From positions 1-35,466 of the IMG/VR virus record IMGVR_UViG_3300011336_000299: a stretch of DNA of 35,466 nucleotides; one strand, 5' to 3'. Below are positions 2,627-35,466 of the stretch, in pieces. Within the stretch, counting starts at the first letter, position 1. The number at the start of each line of letters is the position of its first letter. The stretch is from a virus (Duplodnaviria > Caudoviricetes). The translations under genes were made by a program, and so were the position numbers. A model generated the notes under the pieces. It was not told where the DNA came from, did not search any database, and saw nothing but the letters and a program-made list of their open reading frames with translations.

Positions 2627-2656
2627 TTAAAAAAGTAAAAATATAACTTGACAAAA

Positions 2657-2750
2657 TATAACGTTTGGTGGCTTGGCGAAGTACCGCCTTGAAGAATGTT
2701 CAAATTTAGTACAAAGGCTTGTGGCGGTATTTTGCCAAACCACTGTTATA
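2657..2750. repeat. attC-like imperfect palindrome
   Basis: TATAAC(2657-2662)-GTTTG-GTGGCTTGGCGAAGTACCGCC pairs with GGCGGTATTTTGCCAAACCAC-T-GTTATA(2745-2750); AAC/GTT cores at both ends, asymmetric unpaired spacer, variable central loop. Confidence 0.7.
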
Positions 2751-3132
2751 AGCCGTTTTTTTCTTGGTTTGGTGTAACAATTTAATTTAAAAACAATGGT
2801 ATTCAGAAAATTAAAAAGAGTATGGTCGCATAATGATATGAACTACATACCAAAATTCAGAGAAACATTCCCCGAACTAAACAAAGTATCAAGCGAAGAA
2901 ATGTGTGATAGGTGGATTTCACTTGGTATTGATTTTTACACAGAAGAAAAAACAGAAGTAAAAGGTTGGATTAGATTAACACTTCCTTTCGCATTGATAC
3001 TTTTTGTTCTAATGTTTATCGGACTTCCTTTTGCTTTTATCATTACTGGTAAATGGTCTTATGGTAGTGGCGATAAAAGTCGAATATTAAATTGGTTTCG
3101 TCAATTACGGTTGGTCTAAAATGGCTTATAAC
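2663..3132. mobile_element. Putative integron-like single-gene cassette (470 bp)
   Basis: Bounded by direct TATAAC copies (2657-2662, 3127-3132); ORF flanked by 14/15 inverted repeats GTTATAAGCCGTTTT (2745-2759) and AAAATGGCTTATAAC (3118-3132). Confidence 0.6.
2796..3119 (+). CDS. Membrane protein carried in the putative cassette
   Basis: 107 aa with long hydrophobic segment WIRLTLPFALILFVLMFIGLPFAFIITG; stop codon overlaps the cassette inverted repeat. Confidence 0.75.
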   Translation: MVFRKLKRVWSHNDMNYIPKFRETFPELNKVSSEEMCDRWISLGIDFYTEEKTEVKGWIRLTLPFALILFVLMFIGLPFAFIITGKWSYGSGDKSRILNWFRQLRLV

Positions 3133-3168
3133 TCACTTATAGACGCAATAAAATAAACACAACTAACT

Positions 3169-3366
3169 ATGTATCAATTTGTAAAGATAACCATTGATGA
3201 CCGTATCTATTTTTTTAGTAAACCGCATCATTTATACCACGAAGGCAAATTTTATAAAGCATTTGTACATGGTAGCCAATTAGCATGGAAAGTAAAAAAT
3301 AAATTAATCACTTATAAAAAACTAAAAAATGATAACAATAGAAAAAATAACAGAGATAGTTGCTAA
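3169..3366 (+). CDS. Hypothetical protein
   Basis: 65-aa ORF with A-rich leader, fills gap in operon. Confidence 0.55.
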   Translation: MYQFVKITIDDRIYFFSKPHHLYHEGKFYKAFVHGSQLAWKVKNKLITYKKLKNDNNRKNNRDSC

Positions 3367-4079: not shown

Positions 4080-4487
4080 ATGATAAGACATTTATACACC
4101 GATGCTAATTACGAATATACATTAGAAATAATGTTTACAGATAATGTAAAAAAAGCATTTAAGGCATTGTTAAAAAGGTGGAAGATGCAAGATGAGGCAG
4201 TAGATGCGGAAGGATTTACAGTTAGGTGTAAAGATGACATCACTAAATATGCTTTGATATTTGACTTCGATAAACTAACCGATAACCTTATTAGCCATGA
4301 AGTGCTGCATGTATCTTGCTTTATATTGGATGATAGAACGATTGACCTTGCAGGTGGTAATGATGATTACGAGAACCTAGCTTGGCTTAATGGGCATTTA
4401 AATGATATGGTAAGGCAAATAATAGAAAAGGAAAATATTACAATGCATTCAACTTTAATCAAATCAAAAACTAAGAAACTTGGGTAA
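4080..4487 (+). CDS. Putative HExxH zinc metallopeptidase-like protein
   Basis: LISHEVLHV motif with downstream E (DYENLAW); start placed at ATG 4080 rather than 4041 (which overlaps upstream gene). Confidence 0.6.
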   Translation: MIRHLYTDANYEYTLEIMFTDNVKKAFKALLKRWKMQDEAVDAEGFTVRCKDDITKYALIFDFDKLTDNLISHEVLHVSCFILDDRTIDLAGGNDDYENLAWLNGHLNDMVRQIIEKENITMHSTLIKSKTKKLG

Positions 4488-5637
4488 ATGGACTGAATAT
4501 AATAGCGAGATAATTGCACTACTGCAAGCCAATGAAAGCATGAGCAATCATCTTGCAGCGCAGACAATTTTAAAAACGGATAAGTCAAAAGATGATAGTT
4601 TAGATGTTGCTAGTTTAACCCAGCACATCAGAAGGCATAGAGCAGAATTACTAGATAAAAACGAAGGCATATATAATGCAACAGAAGAACTTGATGTCCC
4701 AAATAGTAAAGTAAAACACCTTTGGTTAAAAAATAAAAGTGCATCTTTATTTGTAAAGAACCCTGATTATGTTGATACCGAAGAAAATGATTATTCTGAA
4801 TTAAGAGCAAAGTTACTAGAAGAAATAAAAGGCTATGCACCAGAGATAAGCAAAATAGATAGAACAAAACAAAAAGACGAGCATTTATTAATACTAGATC
4901 CAAGCGATATACACATAGGCAAATTATGTTCATCTTTTGAAACTAAGGAAGAATATAACTCGCAGATAGCAGTAAAGAGAGTAAAGGATGGAGTTAATGG
5001 ATTAATTAACAAATCTATTTCATGGAATATTGACAAGATAATATTTGTTGGTGGTAATGATATTCTGCACGTTGATAATCCAAAAAATACAACTACTAGC
5101 GGAACGCATCAAGATACAGATGGAATGTGGTATGATAATTTTGTTATAGCTAAAAAATTATACATTGATATATTAACTTTACTAATGCAGGTAGCAGATG
5201 TACATTTTACTTATAATCCTTCTAATCATGATTTTTCAAATGGTTTTTTTCTTTGCCAAGCAATAGAGGCTTATTTTTCTAAGTGTGAAAATATTACATT
5301 TAGTATAGATATGAGCCATAGAAAATATAGCGTGTATGGTTCAAACTTAATAGGTACTACGCATGGGGATGGTGCTAAAATACCAGACCTGCCATTATTA
5401 ATGGCGCATGAAAGCAAAGAATGGAGTACCTGCAAGCATAGATATATTTATACGCACCATATACACCATAAAATGAGTAAAGATTATATGAGTGTTTGCG
5501 TAGAGAGTTTAAGAAGCCCAAGCGGTGCGGATGGGTGGCATCATAGAAACGGATATCAACATGCGCCAAAAGCAATAGAGGCATTTATTCATCATAAAGA
5601 ACATGGTCAAGTAGCTAAATTAGTACACATTTTTTAA
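4480..5637 (+). CDS. Calcineurin-like metallophosphoesterase
   Basis: Motifs SDIHIG, GNDILHVD, SNHD, THGD, HHIHH in the canonical order. Confidence 0.85.
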   Translation: MGKWTEYNSEIIALLQANESMSNHLAAQTILKTDKSKDDSLDVASLTQHIRRHRAELLDKNEGIYNATEELDVPNSKVKHLWLKNKSASLFVKNPDYVDTEENDYSELRAKLLEEIKGYAPEISKIDRTKQKDEHLLILDPSDIHIGKLCSSFETKEEYNSQIAVKRVKDGVNGLINKSISWNIDKIIFVGGNDILHVDNPKNTTTSGTHQDTDGMWYDNFVIAKKLYIDILTLLMQVADVHFTYNPSNHDFSNGFFLCQAIEAYFSKCENITFSIDMSHRKYSVYGSNLIGTTHGDGAKIPDLPLLMAHESKEWSTCKHRYIYTHHIHHKMSKDYMSVCVESLRSPSGADGWHHRNGYQHAPKAIEAFIHHKEHGQVAKLVHIF

Positions 5638-5638
5638 T

Positions 5639-5836
5639 ATGACACAGATAACATTTACAACAGATTGCAAAGATGAAGCTAAGGTATTTATACATGCAGT
5701 AGAAAAGGCAATAGCAGTATCTGAACTAAAACAAAAACTAAGATATGGGTTAAAAGAAATTGACTTTGGCGAAAACCAAAGTTATATTCAGCAGTTATAC
5801 AGTTTAATTTGCGAGATTGATAGCATTGGAGAATAA
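5639..5836 (+). CDS. Hypothetical protein
   Basis: 65-aa ORF, last gene before terminator. Confidence 0.65.
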   Translation: MTQITFTTDCKDEAKVFIHAVEKAIAVSELKQKLRYGLKEIDFGENQSYIQQLYSLICEIDSIGE

Positions 5837-5864
5837 AAAAAGCACTTAATTAAAAGTGCCTTTT
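5835..5864. terminator. Probable bidirectional intrinsic terminator
   Basis: A-run, GCACTT(5842-5847)/AAGTGC(5854-5859) stem, CTTTT. Confidence 0.6.
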
Positions 5865-5897
5865 CCTGCATAAGTATTTATTAACCCGATAAAAACT

Positions 5898-5928
5898 ATT
5901 GCAAATATATAAAAATAGTTTAATTTTG
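5898..5928 (+). promoter_or_regulatory. Promoter upstream of terminase small subunit
   Basis: ATTG (5898-5901), 19-nt spacer, TAATTTTG (5921-5928). Confidence 0.55.
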
Positions 5929-5943
5929 TACCAAATATAAATC

Positions 5944-6366
5944 ATGGCAAGACCAAAAGGAACAAAGTATATTGAAACACCAGAAAAGATGTGGCAATTA
6001 TTTGAAGATTATAGAAGCGAAGTAAAGAACAACCCTAGAATAGTGAATGTATTTGGTGGTAAAGACTTTGAAGAAAGGCAAAACAGACTTGAAAGACCAT
6101 TGACATTTGAAGGATTTTATAATTATTGCTATAAAGTAATAGGATGTATAGACCAATACTTTGAGAATAGAGATAATAGATATACAGATTATATTGCCAT
6201 CTGTCGCGCAATTAAGCTAGAAATTAAGCAGGACCAGATAGAGGGCGGCATGGTAGGGCAATACAATCCATCTATAACACAGCGTTTAAATGGATTAACT
6301 GAAAGAGTTGAGCAAAAAACAGAGGGCGAAGTGAAACACGATGTAATTGTAACGCTAAATTTATGA
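5944..6366 (+). CDS. terS: Terminase small subunit (P22 gp3-like DNA packaging protein)
   Basis: MARPK...ETPEKMWQLFEDY, RPLTFEGF, DQIEGGMVGQYNPSITQRLNGL motifs; lies upstream of TerL. Confidence 0.8.
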   Translation: MARPKGTKYIETPEKMWQLFEDYRSEVKNNPRIVNVFGGKDFEERQNRLERPLTFEGFYNYCYKVIGCIDQYFENRDNRYTDYIAICRAIKLEIKQDQIEGGMVGQYNPSITQRLNGLTERVEQKTEGEVKHDVIVTLNL

Positions 6367-6959
6367 TAAATAAAATACTTTTACTACTCGAAAATTCAGC
6401 ATCCTTCAATAAGTATATTGATAGTGTGCATCCATCGGATTTACAGCAAGACCTTAAAAGCGAAGTGTATTTAATACTTGCAGATAAAAAAGTAGAAGTA
6501 TTGGAGCAGTTAGTAAAGGATAATAAAGTTGAGCAGTTTGCAGTGGCTATTGCCAAAACGCAAATACAAAGTACTAGCAGTCCATTTTACGTTAAGTATC
6601 GCAAAGCACTACCAGTTCAAAAGCAATTGGATAGCGTTGATGAATTGGATGTTAGTACACTTAGGGCGGTGGATAGTGAATTGATTAATGCACTAGTTAA
6701 TACAGGGGGGAGTGTAAAAAAGCTAAGTGATAACACAGGAATATACTACAAGGCACTACTAGATATGACCAAAGAAATAGCTGAAAAGAATAGGATTAAT
6801 AAGCAAGGTGTTACAACATCAATAACTATCAAAGTGGAGTTGAAAGTAGCAGACCAGAACCGAAGTATAACATCAATTAAATCAGATGTGAATAAAATAT
6901 TGAATAACCAACTCAAAGGGGTTAAGGTAAAAGATGTACTTTTGTCACACTTTAGTTAA
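6363..6959 (+). CDS. Putative sigma-factor-like / HTH transcription regulator
   Basis: DLQQDLKSEVYLIL resembles sigma region 2; GSVKKLSDNTGIYYKAL resembles an HTH. Confidence 0.45.
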   Translation: MINKILLLLENSASFNKYIDSVHPSDLQQDLKSEVYLILADKKVEVLEQLVKDNKVEQFAVAIAKTQIQSTSSPFYVKYRKALPVQKQLDSVDELDVSTLRAVDSELINALVNTGGSVKKLSDNTGIYYKALLDMTKEIAEKNRINKQGVTTSITIKVELKVADQNRSITSIKSDVNKILNNQLKGVKVKDVLLSHFS

Positions 6960-27280: not shown

Positions 27281-27850
27281 ATGACACTTTACAAAAAATT
27301 ACTAGAAATCCAAAAGAAAGTAAATGGATTTAAAAAAGACAAAAAATCATTCGGCTACGATTACGTTAGCGGTTCTAAAGTACTAGAATATATTAAGCCT
27401 TTAATGAATGAATACGGCTTGATTTTAAAGCAAGAAATAACAAGTATAGAGAATACTAGGCAAGACTATCTAAGTGCCAAAGGCGCGCAAAAAAATGAGA
27501 TATTAAGTAAGGTTATGATGCGCTTTACTTGGATAGATTGCGAAACAGAGGAAAAGGATATTAATGAGTTTGGGGCGAATGGTCAGAATGACTGGGAGAA
27601 GGGATTAGGCTCGGCACTTACTTATGCTGAAAGATACTTTTTATTAAAGTTTTTCCATATTGCAACTGATGAAGATGATATAGACAATGCGGACAGAAAA
27701 ACAAGCGCAGGCGTACCTTTAGAAACTGCAATACGACAAGCTGAAACACTTGCAGATTTAACAAAAATATATAATAAATATAAGCCAACTGATAAAAATC
27801 TATTAGACTTAATGAGCGCAAAAAAATTAGAATTCACTTTAAACAAATAA
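27281..27850 (+). CDS. erf: ERF-family single-strand annealing protein
   Basis: LYKKLLEIQ...GYDY...GSALTYAERYFLLKFFHIATDEDDID ERF signature. Confidence 0.9.
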   Translation: MTLYKKLLEIQKKVNGFKKDKKSFGYDYVSGSKVLEYIKPLMNEYGLILKQEITSIENTRQDYLSAKGAQKNEILSKVMMRFTWIDCETEEKDINEFGANGQNDWEKGLGSALTYAERYFLLKFFHIATDEDDIDNADRKTSAGVPLETAIRQAETLADLTKIYNKYKPTDKNLLDLMSAKKLEFTLNK

Positions 27851-28219: not shown

Positions 28220-29353
28220 ATGACAGAAAAAATAATTAAAGACATAGTAGACCATTTGCAAGGAATGGATACTATAAAAAAAATCACAGCTATAAACGAA
28301 TTAAGAGAAGCTATACATAAACAATCACCATTTAAAAATGAGCCAGTTGATTTTGTAAAGTGGGTAAAATCTGAAAATATAGTTGCAAATGACTATAATC
28401 CAAATAAAGTAGCACCACCTGAAATGGAGTTATTAGAAATATCTATTATGAATGATGGATATACTCAGCCAATAGTAACTTGGGAAAATGATGATAAAGG
28501 TAAAATTGAAGTTATTGATGGATTCCATAGAAATAGAGTAGGTAAAGAGTCTAAAATAGTTAGTAAAAGAATAATGGGGTTTTTACCAGTTGTAAATATT
28601 AGGACTGAGCAATCAAATAAAAATGATAGGATTGCATCTACAATTAGACATAATAGAGCAAGAGGTAAACATCAAGTAGATGCTATGAGTGAAATTGTCA
28701 TTGAGTTAAAAAATAGAAATTGGACAAACCAAAGAATAGCTAAACAACTTGGAATGGATGAAGAAGAAGTTTTAAGACTTTGCCAAATATCTGGATTAGA
28801 ACATTTATTTACAGATAGTGATTTTAGCAAATCTTGGGAAAGCTCAGATTATGAAGATGAATTTGAAGTATTAACTGATAATATTAGTAATGATGAAATG
28901 AATATTTATAAAATACCAAATGAGGCAGATGCAAATAGGATTTTTCATACTTATGATAAATGGGAATGCCACAAAGCAGGTTTTTATAACAATAAAAAAG
29001 AAGGTTGGACAGATGAAATGTGCCAAAATGAATATGTAAGAATATTATCTGATACAGAATTATTTTCAGAAATATTAGATAAACTTATAAAAGAATGGAA
29101 GTATTCATGTGAACATTATTTAACAAATAAAAGTATGAATAGAATAGCATGGCTAGGACAAGCTTCTGTATGTTTTTATTCTGGAGTACCTTCAATTTAT
29201 AGCAGTGCATGGAATAAACTTACTGATCAACAGCAATTAAAAGCTAATTTAACTGCTGAAAAGTATTTAAATAAATGGCTTGCTATAAATGGAAGAAATG
29301 AAGTGGACTTAAATGAAGCTTTGCAAATTGGTAGACAAATAGAATTATATTAA
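28220..29353 (+). CDS. ybdM: YbdM/IbrB-like ParB/Srx-domain protein with extra C-terminal domain
   Basis: EPVDFVKWV, NDYNPNKVAPPE, DGYTQPIV, VIDGFHR, STIRHNRARGKH, LGMDEEEVLRL; ~170 aa extension (RIFHTYDKWECHKAGFY...CEHYLTNKSMNRIAWLGQA). Confidence 0.85.
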   Translation: MTEKIIKDIVDHLQGMDTIKKITAINELREAIHKQSPFKNEPVDFVKWVKSENIVANDYNPNKVAPPEMELLEISIMNDGYTQPIVTWENDDKGKIEVIDGFHRNRVGKESKIVSKRIMGFLPVVNIRTEQSNKNDRIASTIRHNRARGKHQVDAMSEIVIELKNRNWTNQRIAKQLGMDEEEVLRLCQISGLEHLFTDSDFSKSWESSDYEDEFEVLTDNISNDEMNIYKIPNEADANRIFHTYDKWECHKAGFYNNKKEGWTDEMCQNEYVRILSDTELFSEILDKLIKEWKYSCEHYLTNKSMNRIAWLGQASVCFYSGVPSIYSSAWNKLTDQQQLKANLTAEKYLNKWLAINGRNEVDLNEALQIGRQIELY

Positions 29354-29371
29354 CCTTTAAATTATAATAAA

Positions 29372-30583
29372 ATGGCAACAAAAAAATATTTAGATATAAA
29401 TGTATTAGAAGCTTCTAAAAATAGAATAAGTAAAGTTTTTGATAGTTTTGAAAATATATACATAAGTTTTAGTGGTGGTAAGGATTCAACAGTAATGACT
29501 CATTTAGTTATGGCTGAAGCTATAAAAAGAAATAGAAAAGTAGCTATATTAATTATAGACCTTGAGGCTCAGTATAAGCAAACAATTGACCATATTAGAG
29601 AAATAGTATCACTTTACAAAGATAATATAGAGTTACATTGGTTTTGTGGAGAATTGCTTTTGAGAAATGCAGTAAGTGATTTCCAACCAAAGTGGGTATG
29701 TTGGGATGAAGATAATAAAAATATTTGGGTTAGGCAAAAGCCAGAGGAAGCCTCAGATTTAAGCCAGTACGATTTTTATTTACCTAAAATGGAATTTGAA
29801 GAATTTATGGTGTTATTTGGTAAATGGTATTCAAAAGGGAAATTAACTGCTGGGTTTATAGGAATTAGAGCAGATGAAAGTTTACACAGATACAGAGCAA
29901 TTGTATCAAATAAGAAAGGTTTAATGTTTAATGGGCATAAATGGAGTACAAAAGTAAGTACTAATTTATTTAATATTTATCCTATATACGATTGGAGAAC
30001 TGAAGATATTTGGATATTCCACTCAAAAAATAAACATCTTTGTCATAATACAATTTATGATATGATGACAATGGCAGGTGTTAAGTTAAGCAATCAAAGG
30101 CTTTGCCAACCATTTGGGGATGACCAAAAAAGAGGATTATGGCTTTACCACATATTAGAAAGTGATACATGGTACAAGTTATTAAACAGAGTATCAGGTG
30201 TAAATTCAGGCACGTTATATATTCAAGAGAGAGGTAGCATAAATGGGTATAATAATATTGATAAACCAAATAATCACACTTGGGAAAGCTATGTAAACTA
30301 CCTTTTAAAATCCCTACCAAACACAATGCGCAAACATTACAAAGAAAGATTTGTAAAGTTTATAGTTGGTTGGAAAAAAAGAGGATATCAGGTAATACCA
30401 GACGAAGCTCCACATGAACTAGAAGTAAAATGTTGGGCTCCATCTTGGAAGAGAATGGCAAGATGTATTTTGCGAAATGATTATTATTGCAAAGGATTAG
30501 GACAAACACAGCCAAAATCAGAAGCTTACGAAAAATATAAATCTATTAAAGAAAAAAGAAAAATAGCATTACAATTAAATTAA
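29372..30583 (+). CDS. ybdN: YbdN/IbrA-like PAPS-reductase-family protein (DUF3440-type)
   Basis: PP-loop ISFSGGKDS, IDLEAQY, GIRADESLHR, YPIYDW, QRLCQPFGDDQ, PSWKRMARCILRNDYYCKGL. Confidence 0.88.
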   Translation: MATKKYLDINVLEASKNRISKVFDSFENIYISFSGGKDSTVMTHLVMAEAIKRNRKVAILIIDLEAQYKQTIDHIREIVSLYKDNIELHWFCGELLLRNAVSDFQPKWVCWDEDNKNIWVRQKPEEASDLSQYDFYLPKMEFEEFMVLFGKWYSKGKLTAGFIGIRADESLHRYRAIVSNKKGLMFNGHKWSTKVSTNLFNIYPIYDWRTEDIWIFHSKNKHLCHNTIYDMMTMAGVKLSNQRLCQPFGDDQKRGLWLYHILESDTWYKLLNRVSGVNSGTLYIQERGSINGYNNIDKPNNHTWESYVNYLLKSLPNTMRKHYKERFVKFIVGWKKRGYQVIPDEAPHELEVKCWAPSWKRMARCILRNDYYCKGLGQTQPKSEAYEKYKSIKEKRKIALQLN

Positions 30584-30585
30584 CT

Positions 30586-30738
30586 ATGTACAAAGAATTA
30601 AAACTAAGCCAAGAAAAAAAGCGAAAGTTACGCATATACAAAAATAAGGTAGTGGATTATCAAATTGAGAGAGTGCCACATCCAACTTTGAAAAATACAT
30701 GGATTGAGAGGCGAAAAGAAAGTGTAAAGTGTAAATAA
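30586..30738 (+). CDS. Small basic hypothetical protein (50 aa)
   Basis: Read by hand: MYKELKLSQEKKRKL...RVPHPTLKNTWIERRKESVKCK*. Confidence 0.55.
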   Translation: MYKELKLSQEKKRKLRIYKNKVVDYQIERVPHPTLKNTWIERRKESVKCK

Positions 30739-30745
30739 AAAGTTG

Positions 30746-30753
30746 TATATTTG
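30746..30753 (+). promoter_or_regulatory. -7 promoter element upstream of primase
   Basis: TATATTTG; no clear TTTG -33. Confidence 0.6.
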
Positions 30754-30757
30754 CAAC

Positions 30758-30845
30758 GTATCTGGTCCATACATAAACAATAATTTTATTGCCCCCATTT
30801 TTAAAGTGAAAGGACCAGCTACACTTTTAATTTGGGGGTTTTTTT
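30758..30845 (+). ncRNA. Two-hairpin leader RNA with complementary loops (kissing-loop candidate B)
   Basis: GTAT-[CTGGTCC 30762-30768]-ATAC; GCCCCCA...AAAGTG-[..GGACCAG 30812-30818..]-CACTTT...TGGGGGT followed by T-tract. Confidence 0.6.
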
Positions 30846-30852
30846 ACTTAAT

Positions 30853-32973
30853 ATGAAGATAAATTTATTTAAAGCAGGAAACCAATCATCAAAACCTATT
30901 CAAGAAATAGAATTTGAAAACTATTTATCCAATGTAAAAAATGGACTTTGGCAAGATGATGTACTTGCATACAGAACAGGTAATTTACAAAAAGAAAAAT
31001 TACCATGTATTACTACAAGTGGCATATTTTCTGAAAGGAAAGAAGATAAAATATTAGAACATTCTGGGTTTATCTGTATTGATTTGGATGCAAAGGACCA
31101 AATAGTTAAGTTTGATATTGATAAAATAAAACAAGATAGCTATGTGTATGCAGTCCATCAATCGGTAAGCGGTTTTGGATATGCAGTATTCTTTAAAATC
31201 AATCCTGAAAAACATAAAGAAAGTTATTTTGGATTAGAAAAGTATTTTTTAGATAATTATAAGTTGATAGTTGATCCTGCACCTAAAAATGTTTGTTCAC
31301 TTAGATTTGTTTCTTATGATCCTGATTTATACCAAAACGAAAAGGCTAAAGTATTTAAACAATACCTAAAAAAAGAAAGTAAAAAAGATATATTCACTTA
31401 TTATCCAACTACGCAAAATGATTTTGACGAAATAGTTAGAGAGGTAACCAATAGAGGTTTAAATTTATGTGATGATTACGAAAATTGGGTAAACTTTTCT
31501 TTTGCATTAGTATCTGAATTTGGGGCAAATGGTAGGAATTATTATCATGCTTTTTCTTGTGCTAGTCAAAAATATACATCGGAGTCCACAGATAAGATGT
31601 ATGATATTGCATTAAAAAGGAATAAAAGTGGAATTTCAATTAAAACAATATACTACCATTGTAAGAATGCAGGTGTTAATATTGTATCTGAAAAAACAAA
31701 GCAAATTGCAACCATTACAAAACTATCAACCACTAAAGAAGAAGCCAAAATTAAGCTGAAAGAATTAGGGATTGATGATAATGGATTAGTTGATAAAATA
31801 AAAAGTGAGGAAAAGGAAAAAACTATACTTGATGAAGTTGTGGACCTTATAAAATTGACAAACATTAAATTTAACGAGATAACTCGTAACTATGAATTTA
31901 ATGGCGAGCAAATGACCGATAGAGTACTGGCTAAATTTTATACTAAAGCATGGAAGTTAATAGATGAAGATATTAGTAAGGATAAAATATTTACATTAAT
32001 TGAAAATCCTGAAAATACAATTACCTACAATCCAATCAAAAACTTTTTTGTAAAAAATGAGCATTTGAAGCCTAAAGGTAATTTTGAATTACTTTGCTCA
32101 TGCTTTGAAGTTGAACACCGAATGATACACGAAAAGCAATCTGTATTAGTACTTGATTACTTAGAGATATTCCTTAAAAAATGGCTATTATCTATTATTG
32201 GTTCAGCACATGGTACGTATTCATTGATGATATTGGTGTTAAATGGTAAGCAAGGGATTAGCAAAACAGAGTTTTTTAGGGGTTTATTGCCCGATGAACT
32301 TCGAGAATATTATGCCGAGTCAAACCTAGATGAAGGGAAAGATAGTGAAATATTGATGACTAAAAAATTACTTATTGTAGATGATGAATTTGGTGGGAAA
32401 AGTAAAAAAGATGCTACCAAATTAAAAAGATTATCAAGCCAGCAAACATTTTCAATTAGAAGACCATACGGTAAAGTAAGCGAAGACTTAAACAGATTGG
32501 CTGTATTAGGTGGAACATCTAATGAAAGTGAGGTAATTAATGACCATACAGGTAACAGGCGTATAATACCCGTAAATGTAGTTAATTTTGATTTGGTTAA
32601 ATATAGATCAATTGATAAAACAGAATTGTTTATGGAGCTTTACCACGAATGGCAAATGGACCGTACATCATGGTTTTTAACTGCAACTGAAATTGAAAAC
32701 TTAAATCTATCTACTATCAATAATCAAGAGGTAATGACAGAAGAAGAAATTATCAATAAAATATTAGTTTTTGATAAATTCCACGAGATGACAAATACAG
32801 AAATACGAATTGCAATCGAAAATAAATATCCATCTGTAAGAACCAGCTCCAAAAGAATTGGAATGGCTTTGAAAAAATGTGGATTTAATCAAGAGGTAAA
32901 ATATGCAGATGGGATTACAAAAAGAGTTTATAATTTAAAGGTAAAAACAGACGATATTCAACCAATTTTTTAA
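30853..32973 (+). CDS. Primase-helicase: BT4734-like N-terminal, PriCT-2 and VirE/VapE-type ATPase domains
   Basis: KEKLPCITTSGIF, HSGFICIDLD, SVSGFG, RFVSYDPD; DYENWVNFSFAL; Walker A-like GKQGISKT, LIVDDE, RRPYG, TGNRR; start moved to ATG 30853 after the leader hairpin. Confidence 0.9.
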   Translation: MKINLFKAGNQSSKPIQEIEFENYLSNVKNGLWQDDVLAYRTGNLQKEKLPCITTSGIFSERKEDKILEHSGFICIDLDAKDQIVKFDIDKIKQDSYVYAVHQSVSGFGYAVFFKINPEKHKESYFGLEKYFLDNYKLIVDPAPKNVCSLRFVSYDPDLYQNEKAKVFKQYLKKESKKDIFTYYPTTQNDFDEIVREVTNRGLNLCDDYENWVNFSFALVSEFGANGRNYYHAFSCASQKYTSESTDKMYDIALKRNKSGISIKTIYYHCKNAGVNIVSEKTKQIATITKLSTTKEEAKIKLKELGIDDNGLVDKIKSEEKEKTILDEVVDLIKLTNIKFNEITRNYEFNGEQMTDRVLAKFYTKAWKLIDEDISKDKIFTLIENPENTITYNPIKNFFVKNEHLKPKGNFELLCSCFEVEHRMIHEKQSVLVLDYLEIFLKKWLLSIIGSAHGTYSLMILVLNGKQGISKTEFFRGLLPDELREYYAESNLDEGKDSEILMTKKLLIVDDEFGGKSKKDATKLKRLSSQQTFSIRRPYGKVSEDLNRLAVLGGTSNESEVINDHTGNRRIIPVNVVNFDLVKYRSIDKTELFMELYHEWQMDRTSWFLTATEIENLNLSTINNQEVMTEEEIINKILVFDKFHEMTNTEIRIAIENKYPSVRTSSKRIGMALKKCGFNQEVKYADGITKRVYNLKVKTDDIQPIF

Positions 32974-33288
32974 ATAATTGATAATCAACATAATACATAT
33001 TACAAACATTACACATCATTACAGATTATTACAGATTAAAAAAAATCTGTAAGACGCACTACCATTGACTATTAGCTATATTATTACACATATTACACAT
33101 TTATACATAATTATAACTTAGTATAGAAAAAAATAAAAAAAAAATAAAAAAAAATTATTTACGTAGTAGGTTTCAAATATTGTAAAATAATCTGTAATCT
33201 GTAAGAAATACATAAAAAAATCAACCAAACCCAATACCACACTGCATTACAGATTATTACAGATTATTACAGATAAAAATTATAAAAA
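32974..33288. other. Putative replication origin with ATTACA(GATT) iterons
   Basis: ATTACA at 32999, 33008, 33018, 33028, 33083, 33092, 33246, 33256, 33266; inverted AATCTGTAA at 33044, 33189, 33196; central A-tract 33127-33154; between primase and helicase. Confidence 0.7.
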
Positions 33289-34791
33289 ATGCTTAGAAAT
33301 TACCAAATAGAAATAAAAAACAAGGTTCAAAACATTGAATTTAGGAAAAACATTTTACAGATGCCAACTGGTAGCGGTAAGACTTTTACATTTATTGAGA
33401 TTGCAAAGGACCATTTCACAGAAACGACAGAAAGGATTTTAATATTGGTCCATCGTACAGAATTATTGGAGCAAGCCAGAAAATCATTAGGCGAAAAATG
33501 CTTTATTATTAGTGCAGGGGTTAAAACCATTCCACATAATTTCGATTATTATATTGGGATGATAGAAACAACGTATAAACGTATCAAAATGCTACCAAAA
33601 TTTGGGTTAATTATAATAGATGAATGCCACTTTGGTTCATTTAAAAAATTGCCTTATTTTGGCTTAGAATACGAAGAAAAAATATTAGGAGTTACAGCAA
33701 CACCAATTGCAGAAACACCACTGGCTAATTATTACGATAACTTGATATTAGGTCCAAGTGTAGAAACTTTAATAAATGATGAATATCTATTGAATTGTGA
33801 TGTTTACGGTTTTGCATCTGATTTAGTAAGTAAAGAAAAATGGAAAGTAAAGAAAGGTGAATTTGATGAAAAGCAAATGGAAGATTTTTATTCATCTGAA
33901 AAAATGGTTAAGAATGTTGTAAATGCATATTGGGAAAAGTCAGCAGGTAAAAAAACATTGATATTCAATGTAAATCTAAAACATAATGAATGTGTAAGGA
34001 ATGCATTTGAACTTGAAGGATTAGAGGTTAGAACAATATCAAGCGAAACAGATAAAAACGAAAGAAAAGAAACAATAAATTGGTTCAAAACAAATAAACA
34101 TGCTATACTGTGCAATGTTGGAGTATTGACTACTGGATTTGATGAGCCAAGTATAGAAACAATAATTTTAAATAGAGCTACCAAAAGCCTATCATTATAT
34201 TTGCAAATGGTGGGGCGTGGTTCGAGATTATATGAAGGTAAAGAAAAGTTTTTGGTATTAGATTTAGGAAAAAATACCACTAGGCATGGAGCTTATACAG
34301 ATTACTTTGATTGGGAAAATTATTTTAAACATGGCGCAAAATTAAATGATGGTAAAAAAGGTTCTGGGGTAGCACCTGTTAAAGAATGCCCTGAATGCCA
34401 TTATTTGCAACACACTAGAAAATTAGTTTGCGCAAGTTGTGGGCATGACTTTGAGGATGAACAAAAAAAGCAAGAACAAGAAGAAAAGGAACAAAAGTTA
34501 GTATTATTAATAAGCACAAAACCTATTGAATTGCCAATAGATAGATTATTGACTATGGCAAAAGATAGAAATTGGAAGCCATTTGCAGTACTGCATAAAA
34601 TTGCAGAACATCTGGTTAATTATTATACTAAACATAATCAAATAGATGGATTAAAAGACCTTATTTATTTAGAAATGACAAAAGAAACTGAAAAATGGTG
34701 TAAAGAATACAACAAACAATTTAACACATGGATGAAAAATATATCCATTGAAATTTTAGAAGGTAAATTAAAATTTATTACAAATGAATAG
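33289..34791 (+). CDS. SF2 DExH helicase (RadD/YejH-like) with zinc ribbon
   Basis: MLRNYQ, MPTGSGKT, IIDECH, TATP, LTTGFD, QMVGRGSR, KECPEC...CASC. Confidence 0.92.
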   Translation: MLRNYQIEIKNKVQNIEFRKNILQMPTGSGKTFTFIEIAKDHFTETTERILILVHRTELLEQARKSLGEKCFIISAGVKTIPHNFDYYIGMIETTYKRIKMLPKFGLIIIDECHFGSFKKLPYFGLEYEEKILGVTATPIAETPLANYYDNLILGPSVETLINDEYLLNCDVYGFASDLVSKEKWKVKKGEFDEKQMEDFYSSEKMVKNVVNAYWEKSAGKKTLIFNVNLKHNECVRNAFELEGLEVRTISSETDKNERKETINWFKTNKHAILCNVGVLTTGFDEPSIETIILNRATKSLSLYLQMVGRGSRLYEGKEKFLVLDLGKNTTRHGAYTDYFDWENYFKHGAKLNDGKKGSGVAPVKECPECHYLQHTRKLVCASCGHDFEDEQKKQEQEEKEQKLVLLISTKPIELPIDRLLTMAKDRNWKPFAVLHKIAEHLVNYYTKHNQIDGLKDLIYLEMTKETEKWCKEYNKQFNTWMKNISIEILEGKLKFITNE

Positions 34792-35122
34792 AGAAGAAGA
34801 TATTTTGCAAGCCGAGATAGTAACATGGTATTCTTTAGAATATGGAAAAGCACACAATAAATGTTTGTTCCATTGCAACAACAAAGCAAAGAATGCTATT
34901 GAAGGAAATAGGATGAAAGCTATGGGTGTTAAGACTGGCGTTTCGGACCTTATATTAGTTGCAAAAGGTAATGTTATATTTGTGGAATTAAAAACGCAAA
35001 AAGGCAAACAAGATCCTGAGCAGGTTATATTTGAAAATCAAGTGAAAGCATTAGGCAATACTTATGTAATTATTAGAAGTTTAGATGAATTTAAAAGTAT
35101 TTGTAAAAAGTATTATGAATGA
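34784..35122 (+). CDS. VRR-NUC domain nuclease
   Basis: EDILQ, MGVKTGVSDLI, FVELK, QDPEQ, IIRSLDEF. Confidence 0.85.
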   Translation: MNREEDILQAEIVTWYSLEYGKAHNKCLFHCNNKAKNAIEGNRMKAMGVKTGVSDLILVAKGNVIFVELKTQKGKQDPEQVIFENQVKALGNTYVIIRSLDEFKSICKKYYE

Positions 35123-35348
35123 GCTTATCAAAAAAATGGAAGCTAACGGCTACTATGTTATAAAATTGGCTAAAACTAATAAAGCTGGAATAGGTGATTT
35201 GCTTTGCTTAAAAAAGGATGAGCCACCATTTTTTATTGAAGTGAAAACTGATAAGGGCGTAGTAAGTCCATTGCAGTTATACCGACAAAAGGAATTACGA
35301 GAATTAGGCTTTAAAAGTATTATTGTAAAAAATATTTTAGAGATATAA
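35115..35348 (+). CDS. Second VRR-NUC, 5'-altered and possibly degenerate paralogue of 1328-1579
   Basis: MNELIKKMEANG replaces MKEQQIQSKVIKKMEANG; GIGDL replaces GIPDL; 3' half protein-identical. Confidence 0.65.
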   Translation: MNELIKKMEANGYYVIKLAKTNKAGIGDLLCLKKDEPPFFIEVKTDKGVVSPLQLYRQKELRELGFKSIIVKNILEI

Positions 35349-35466
35349 AAAGTATTATTATATTTGCTATCAAATCGGATTGCACCCGAGTTAAAAAAAT
35401 TGAAGCCACAATGATTAAAGTAGTGCAATTGCTTTTTTCACTTGTGGCTTTGCTATTTAAAAAATT
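35340..35466. repeat. 127-bp exact repeat of 1571-1697 (circularisation overlap)
   Basis: Exact match ending at the last base of the window. Confidence 0.95.

Follow-up and report, generated by a model that had tools for sequence, protein, structure and literature searches.

The cassette locus

The window, a whole virus record of 35,466 bp (completeness 96%, CheckV), comes from a tailed phage with genes that include those for a helicase, terminase, portal protein, endolysin and an Erf-like protein (27281–27850), and its relatives suggest that its host belongs to the Bacteroidota. A gene with a hairpin in front of it is located here among small plus-strand genes, with a helicase/endonuclease pair on one side and a DnaA-C helix-turn-helix gene on the other (Table 1). 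A first-pass annotation had proposed that this is an integron-like single-gene cassette in a phage genome devoid of an integrase. As to the latter point, the record indeed had 0 matches to PF00589, no tyrosine-recombinase catalytic motif was found in any reading frame of the window, and the fetched flanks of its relatives did not contain a recombinase either. A sigma-70 promoter scan, which does not cover promoters of the Bacteroidota, found fewer sites than in shuffled sequences and was, like the terminator scan of the window, uninformative.

Table 1. Features of the cassette locus; positions are those of the window.
Feature	Position	Strand	Remarks
Left remnant	2645..2662	+	far array end; differs among relatives
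attC-like hairpin	2657..2750	+	AAC 2660-2662 pairs with GTT 2745-2747; 4-nt bulge in the 5' arm
Cassette unit	2660..3129	.	470 bp, from AAC of the hairpin left arm to the base preceding the AAC of the terminal site
Left end of the cassette itself	2745..2759	+	corresponds to the inverse core when read on the minus strand
Cargo gene	2796..3119	+	107 aa; one predicted membrane segment; PHROG 36118
Right end of the cassette itself	3118..3132	+	overlaps the stop codon; holds the crossover AAC 3130-3132
Terminal attI-like docking site	3130..3149	-	fixed while upstream units change; conserved in 11 related contigs
Small gene	3169..3366	+	begins 39 nt downstream of the terminal AAC; weak match to a 74-aa family

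The product of the cargo gene had been taken for a membrane protein, and this is supported by a single strongly hydrophobic segment (Kyte-Doolittle 19-mer maximum of 2.89). The gene is under purifying selection (pN/pS of about 0.09–0.18), the protein matches no Pfam family, its 260 relatives are all without a name, and BLAST searches of annotated phages with the protein or with the hairpin gave nothing useful. Eleven viral genes are related to the cargo over its full length, of which three form complete cassettes (L001, L005, L007), two have the right end only (L006, L011), and six are ordinary phage genes. As homologues occur both as cassettes and as ordinary genes, the cargo stems from the phage gene pool.

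Ends and hairpin of the cassette unit

The 94-bp imperfect palindrome with TATAAC/GTTATA ends is present as had been described, and as DNA it folds with −21.7 kcal/mol on the plus strand and −18.8 kcal/mol on the minus strand. It is the sole such hairpin in the window, save for one weak match in a repeat region near position 33,000. The two ends of the cassette itself form an inverted match at 14 of 15 positions, the runner-up anywhere in the window reaching 12 of 15, and TATAAC is directly repeated at 2657 and 3127 with a spacing of 470 bp. When the unit was circularized in silico, the stem gained the 9 predicted pairs, one of them G:T, and folded with −31.7 kcal/mol. Deletion of the unit does leave the sequence that had been put forward as a compact inverted-repeat empty site, but the inverted repeat comprises just 5 bp and folds with −0.6 kcal/mol; the right half of this site (3130–3149) is conserved among relatives, whereas its left TATAA arm is not kept in L014 and L016, the two relatives that have the left flank of the window. 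A symmetrical inverted-repeat target was ruled out since the left arm is not conserved, and the apparent symmetry is partly incidental.

Read on the minus strand, the order is target site, cassette and hairpin with the ORF inverted in comparison to classical cassettes, as had been suggested. As in attC sites, the core of the unit is complementary to its own inverse core and the crossover lies in AAC. The box geometry is non-canonical, as also noted earlier: a bulge lies beside the crossover, the core of the window is GTTATAA, and the RYYYAAC/GTTRRRY cores and the extrahelical bases near the L box that characterize attC sites are lacking.

Gain, loss and exchange of units at the terminal site

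Eleven related contigs, six viral and five metagenomic, were compared at this locus. The viral contigs were obtained via the gene behind the cassette, and a junction pattern retrieved the same six. In metagenomes the junction pattern gave 8 loci, namely the 5 relatives, an unrelated phage with an identical site (L219) and two chance matches (L215, L216), which were discarded as they showed no flanking similarity. From AAC 3130 onwards the sequence is conserved in all 11 relatives; immediately upstream of this AAC they differ. Eight other units abut the terminal site among these contigs, the arrays being one to four or more units long, and only in L222 did the hairpin scanner see no hairpin. 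The first-pass annotation had named as evidence against a cassette that relatives always carry this ORF, and had expected either alternative cassettes or empty sites; other units do occur at the same junction, but empty alleles were found in none of the 11 contigs, for which the terminal-site pattern was used in the viral and metagenome collections together with the upstream flank gene.

Four differences between near-identical relatives are cut exactly at AAC. L013 differs from the window by an additional methylase unit of 926 bp at the terminal site, L220 exceeds L015 by 812 bp, and L014 has, compared to L016, 333 bp more on one side and 877 bp more on the other. Removal from AAC to AAC restores the shorter allele at 118/120, 120/120, 118/120 and 114/120 positions. 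The unit of the window is also present in an unrelated phage (L001), with 94.8% identity over 2659–3133 and with similarity ending at both AAC triplets. In addition, one Logan contig from another study (X17 record 27) matches 2659–3132 and is unlike the window beyond both ends. The exact cuts at AAC and the copy in L001 indicate that the hairpin moves together with its downstream gene and that the crossover lies within AAC, which substantiates the proposal of a mobile cassette with matching ends of its own.

Imprecise junctions were found as well, with half a hairpin fused to the start of a phage gene in L016 and L018, from which it follows that homology-driven exchange acts at this locus too. 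L016 (3150–3910) and also L218 contain a second copy of the terminal site, which came with a methylase cassette; the hairpin of this cassette is cut and, at a short common stretch, joined to the beginning of the DnaA-C gene. Circle or deletion joints at 2660/3130 were not detected in 8 sequencing runs searched as Logan contigs, which drop rare forms.

A family of hairpins with conserved structure and, in phages, inverted gene orientation

The first-pass annotation had proposed to look for the hairpin in genomes and phages of the Bacteroidota, and in both, arrays of hairpins as well as linked tyrosine recombinases were found. A 20-base hairpin pattern occurs at no fewer than 125 viral loci (>=125), of which 79 are long enough to map and hold 250 hairpins. 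With a hand-made hairpin scanner, 40 loci gave 129 matches on the seed strand compared to 6 on the opposite strand and 6 in the reversed sequence. In 156 units between neighboring hairpins the two ends of the same unit agree at 6.8 of 10 bases, compared to 3.8 of 10 across one hairpin and 4.0 of 10 for shuffled pairs (maximum of 4.3 in 1000).

In an alignment of 29 diverse hairpins of 83–91 nt, 94.4% of cells are paired and compensatory changes occur in 12 of 18 pairs. Double changes number 99, compared to 31.6 in shuffled and at most 22 in slid alignments. Paired cells, double changes and covariation score exceed all 500 shuffles and all slid controls, the latter being lenient controls as the structure was derived from the same sequences, whereas the count of 12 covarying pairs was reached by 44 of 500 shuffles. 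The bulge in the 5' arm next to the crossover has 2–5 nt, and 4 nt in most cases, the inner stem is free of single bulges, and the G:T pair next to AAC, which is invariant, forms on just one of the two strands. In circle form, 77 of 79 hairpins are more stable as the gene-sense strand, so that an imperfect hairpin with conserved structure and one more stable strand is shared with attC sites. In classical attC sites it is the better-folding, AAC-bearing strand that is recombined (PMC5027507), and by this analogy the recombined strand is likely the gene-sense strand.

Of 95 phage units, 91 are hairpin-first, 1 is classical and 3 are without an ORF, so the gene upstream of its own attC, as found in classical cassettes, is not a feature of the phage units. 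The 30 host units (3 loci in 2 genomes) comprise 17 classical ones, 1 hairpin-first unit and 12 without an ORF of at least 50 aa.

The terminal docking site

A matrix was derived from other phages (34 array ends, of which a few may be missed hairpins), and with this matrix position 3130 ranks 1 of 1159 AAC positions in the window. One host docking site scores 12.5 bits with the same matrix compared to 11.1 bits for the site of the window itself. Of the host sites, which were picked by eye, 10 of 11 score in the top 6% of the AAC positions of the window and one scores poorly. The combination of a conserved site with variable units is what would be expected from a fixed docking site of the attI type. 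The equivalent of the integrase sits behind the attI-like site in other phages but not in the window.

Short and long recombinases linked to the arrays

In five phage loci (L041, L058, L060, L091, L161) a tyrosine recombinase of 265–285 aa starts 55–71 nt behind the equivalent AAC, and in the cultured Polaribacter phage Leef_1 a short recombinase likewise follows the terminal site. In Leef_1 (L231) all three elements, hairpin-first cassettes, terminal site and short recombinase, lie at 4400–6864. Read on the minus strand, the layout is the classical one, with the integrase directed away from attI and array, and only the genes are turned round. In a genome collection 48 loci were found; a hairpin was detected upstream in 12 of 16 with the short form, and all 11 units at short-form loci are hairpin-first. 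On Bacteroidota chromosomes a long form of 350–580 aa is followed by a similar site and then by arrays of the same hairpins, and in three Bacteroidota genomes long forms precede such arrays.

The short enzyme has the domains Phage_int_SAM_4 and PF00589, remains below every curated NCBIfam cut-off and scores best with the archaeal XerA model. The linked enzymes from phages and hosts reach 145–167 bits with TIGR02249, whose cut-off is 265, and are about 40 residues short at the I2 position of VchIntIA and IntI2. The expectation of a linked tyrosine recombinase was thus borne out for other phages and for Bacteroidota chromosomes, but the enzyme is not a classical IntI and lacks the I2 insert. A quick tree was calculated (54 rows, SH-aLRT only, one IntI on a long branch, Leef_1 left out) in which short forms group with a support of 99 and most long forms with 95, and in which XerC/XerD of the hosts form a separate branch (SH-aLRT 99). 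Neither the curated cut-offs nor this tree indicate orthology to host XerC/XerD.

Similar short recombinases from Woesearchaeota and Gammaproteobacteria bins (L205, L211, L195, L199) group with IntI2 in the quick tree, and no hairpins of the family were detected beside them. At three host loci (L187, L191, L194) a gene is located just downstream of the long recombinase, between it and the docking site, and its product resembles a single-stranded DNA-binding protein, which at that place would suit a single-strand reaction.

A small gene in place of the recombinase

Behind 34 array ends, a recombinase was found in 3 cases, a gene that clearly belongs to a 74-aa family in 4, and other genes at the rest, so that most array ends carry neither of the two. 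A search with the 74-aa family gave 21 loci, namely 5 seeds, one that was cut off and dropped, and 15 new ones; because many of these have one site in common, they represent about 7 lineages. All 15 new genes lie 35–58 nt behind TAAC, an upstream cassette was detected at 13 of them, and no recombinase motif was found within 2.5 kb at any of the 15. The family comprises at least 207 clusters and is under purifying selection. ORF 3169–3366 of the window matches it with an E value of 0.09, close relatives of this ORF reach down to 0.012 (4878 ORFs), and profile comparison with the family gave a probability of 13%.

The 74-aa family has no Pfam match and no Foldseek match in the PDB at E 0.001. 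Its structural model (pLDDT 88.6) aligns with the N-terminal domain of I-HmuI (PDB 1u3e) with Z 5.5 and an rmsd of 2.5 Å over 57 residues, the next row having 2.3, and for the family, not for the gene of the window, there are many weak viral HNH/NUMOD4 rows and an Atlas lead of 0.86. The fold of the family is therefore predicted to resemble NUMOD4, with a modest Z score and with the window gene itself as a weak member. The family is alike in predicted fold to the NUMOD4 of the HNH endonuclease I-HmuI but stands alone, without a nuclease domain. A stand-alone NUMOD4-like gene in the recombinase slot of some integrase-less phages, weakly including the window, would be new. The product of ORF 3169–3366 may be an accessory factor or DNA-binding helper for the terminal site; alternatively, the slot gene might be a decayed endonuclease passenger.

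Relationship to integrons and phage CALINs

Classical integrons (PMC5027507; VchIntIA, PDB 2a3v) likewise possess cassettes of a single gene whose two ends match each other, a crossover in a conserved AAC triplet, a hairpin with one better-folding strand and a fixed docking site that is not a hairpin, and the recombinase of the other phages has an IntI-type N-terminal domain and is directed away from the docking site. In contrast to classical integrons, the phage genes lie behind their hairpin and not ahead of it, a bulge of 2–5 nt lies by the crossover, the inner stem has no single extrahelical bases, the cores are not strictly GTTRRRY, and the recombinase is about 40 residues short at I2 and absent from the window. 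Of what defines a complete integron, intI in cis is missing in the window and the I2/intI_Cterm insertion in the linked enzymes elsewhere. A CALIN has at least two attC sites without an integrase; the window has one hairpin and its relatives have one to four or more. The system works in the manner of an integron, but the missing I2, the geometry of the attC-like hairpin, the orientation of the genes and the lack of an integrase in cis set it apart from true integrons.

Qi et al. (2023) listed Polaribacter phage P12002L as carrying a CALIN whose attC sites are 'divergent' (PMC9892861). Their P12002L_attC1 is a hairpin of the family studied here, their 'attC2' corresponds, in reverse complement, to the terminal site of the P12002L array, and the phage has hairpin-first arrays of methylase genes without an integrase, as in the system of the window. 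These sites were treated there as ordinary attC sites that point in divergent directions; inverted genes, the own-end rule, allele swaps and a recombinase without I2 do not appear in the available text of that study. P12002L (L149) contains two methylase-rich hairpin-first arrays (29,200–32,300 and 36,950–39,700) with the same terminal site each, and no integrase is annotated; gene 0052, which belongs to the 74-aa family (E 1e-9), lies behind the terminal site of one array. P12002L without and Leef_1 with the enzyme provide both states in culture on one host genus. Cassette methylases likely serve against host restriction.

As in the inverted-integrase integrons of Treponema (PMC4889954), the chromosomal recombinase of Bacteroidota lies upstream of and in line with the array. 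The Treponema enzymes are IntI proteins, however, whereas the one described here is devoid of I2, and in the phage form it is the genes that are inverted, not the integrase. XerC/XerD and archaeal XerA are similar in length and catalytic core and give the best NCBIfam and PDB scores, all under curated cut-offs, but host XerC/XerD branch apart and the substrates are hairpin-bounded cassettes instead of dif. Cury et al. (2016) judged recombinases without I2 near attC sites not to be IntI (PMC4889954). Néron et al. (2022) name one complete integron in Bacteroidetes proper (PMC9024848), to which the accessible part of PMC8618304 adds nothing further. In full-text literature, from which most subscription journals are absent, descriptions of inverted cassettes or of an I2-less enzyme were not found, and the system appears as an integron-like variant little described in print.

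Proposed mechanism and alternatives

Taken together, we consider it likely that the 470-bp unit is a mobile one-gene cassette at an attI-like site of an integron-like system, which is probably served in trans by a short IntI-like recombinase. The excised unit would be a circle in which the joined ends complete the hairpin (from −21.7 to −31.7 kcal/mol in the model). The gene-sense strand would fold and be recombined, and a crossover at AAC with the double-stranded terminal site would place the newest cassette next to this site, which one allele pair fits (L013). As none is present in the genome of the window, the recombinase would act in trans; it might be supplied by the host chromosome in the long form or by a co-infecting phage or prophage in the short form. 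The genes, inverted relative to the hairpin, are thereby in line with the phage operon and could be expressed by read-through from upstream phage promoters without the need for an integron promoter; as they point towards the terminal site, a Pc on the attI side would be antisense. At the weakest step of this scheme, the slot gene behind the terminal site may serve as DNA-binding helper.

The insertion of the I2 helix is held to have made the chemistry of integrons possible, and with the present system hairpin-site recombination can be tested for an enzyme that has no such helix. In IntI this helix docks extrahelical bases and blocks a lethal second strand exchange (PMC7790495), and its lack counts against the proposed reaction; the bulge beside AAC is the candidate for a role in resolving the junction. 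The window represents a minimal form, with one site and one cassette, in which natural alleles map the crossover, and the system offers a site-specific route to some of the mosaicism seen in phages of the Bacteroidota. A more far-reaching version, according to which Bacteroidota phages have a mirror-image pool of cassettes to themselves, based on a second integron chemistry independent of I2, and integrase-less phages such as that of the window retain just the docking site and borrow the recombinase of the host, recruited or steered by a dedicated stand-alone NUMOD4-like protein from the recombinase slot, appears doubtful as a whole.

It is unlikely that the terminal site is a passive relic in a lineage that lost the enzyme, with cassettes made and ordered in recombinase-bearing phages and blocks of the array now swapping by homologous or microhomology recombination. 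Such a history would be in line with the lack of a PF00589 match, the Erf-like annealing protein encoded at 27281–27850, the left flanks that vary among relatives, the imprecise junctions with a duplicated terminal site in L016 and L218, and the half cassette in L018. However, the four exact AAC-to-AAC differences between near-identical relatives argue against it, one of them at the terminal site, which has only AAC in common with the hairpin arm, and this site is conserved and is the best match in the genome to the matrix of the family.

We regard it as very unlikely that a classical IntI or XerC/XerD of the host recombines these sites and that the adjoining short recombinase is a passenger. 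IntI1 did recombine 'attC2' of P12002L, that is, the terminal site, with attI1 (PMC9892861), and the short enzyme has its best score with the archaeal XerA model, but P12002L_attC1, the one true hairpin of the family tested there, gave no verified IntI1 product in the reported data. Complete integrons are rare in Bacteroidetes according to the survey of PMC9024848, XerC/XerD of the same hosts branch apart (99% SH-aLRT, quick tree), and the distance of the short enzyme to the site is fixed across unrelated phages.

Least probable of all is that the hairpin is an RNA element for processing, attenuation or translation start, the matching ends of the unit being shared joints that guide homologous exchange only. 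In phages the better-folding strand is indeed the transcribed one, and some ORFs begin inside the hairpin. In host arrays, however, this hairpin with its asymmetry is located on the opposite strand from the genes, so that its polarity goes with the AAC arm instead of the transcript; moreover, pairing is strongest only after circularization, and no Rfam family matches the hairpins of the window or of 13 phage and host loci.

Additional observations in the window and on a resistance plasmid

A 300-nt repeat with 91% identity (1353–1652 and 35122–35421) carries a duplicated gene for a small endonuclease, and the two ends of the window contain two different helicases (130–1353 and 33289–34791); the repeat possibly reflects a chimeric assembly from two strains or a genuine duplication. 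The non-coding gap from primase to helicase (33007–33280) contains short tandem repeats with ATTACAG units and is origin-like. Between 25858 and 26592 three small genes have a motif in their start regions, AAAATCATGACAAA, in common (repeat families D8 and D9).

On a plasmid of Acinetobacter indicus (NZ_CP041297.1, L241, 119–2300) a truncated recombinase, placed by the quick tree within the long Bacteroidota enzymes, is located upstream of tet(X3), which has partly matching ends on both sides and is followed by half of a hairpin in host polarity. The same family appears to have captured tet(X3), which may bear on the origin of this resistance gene.
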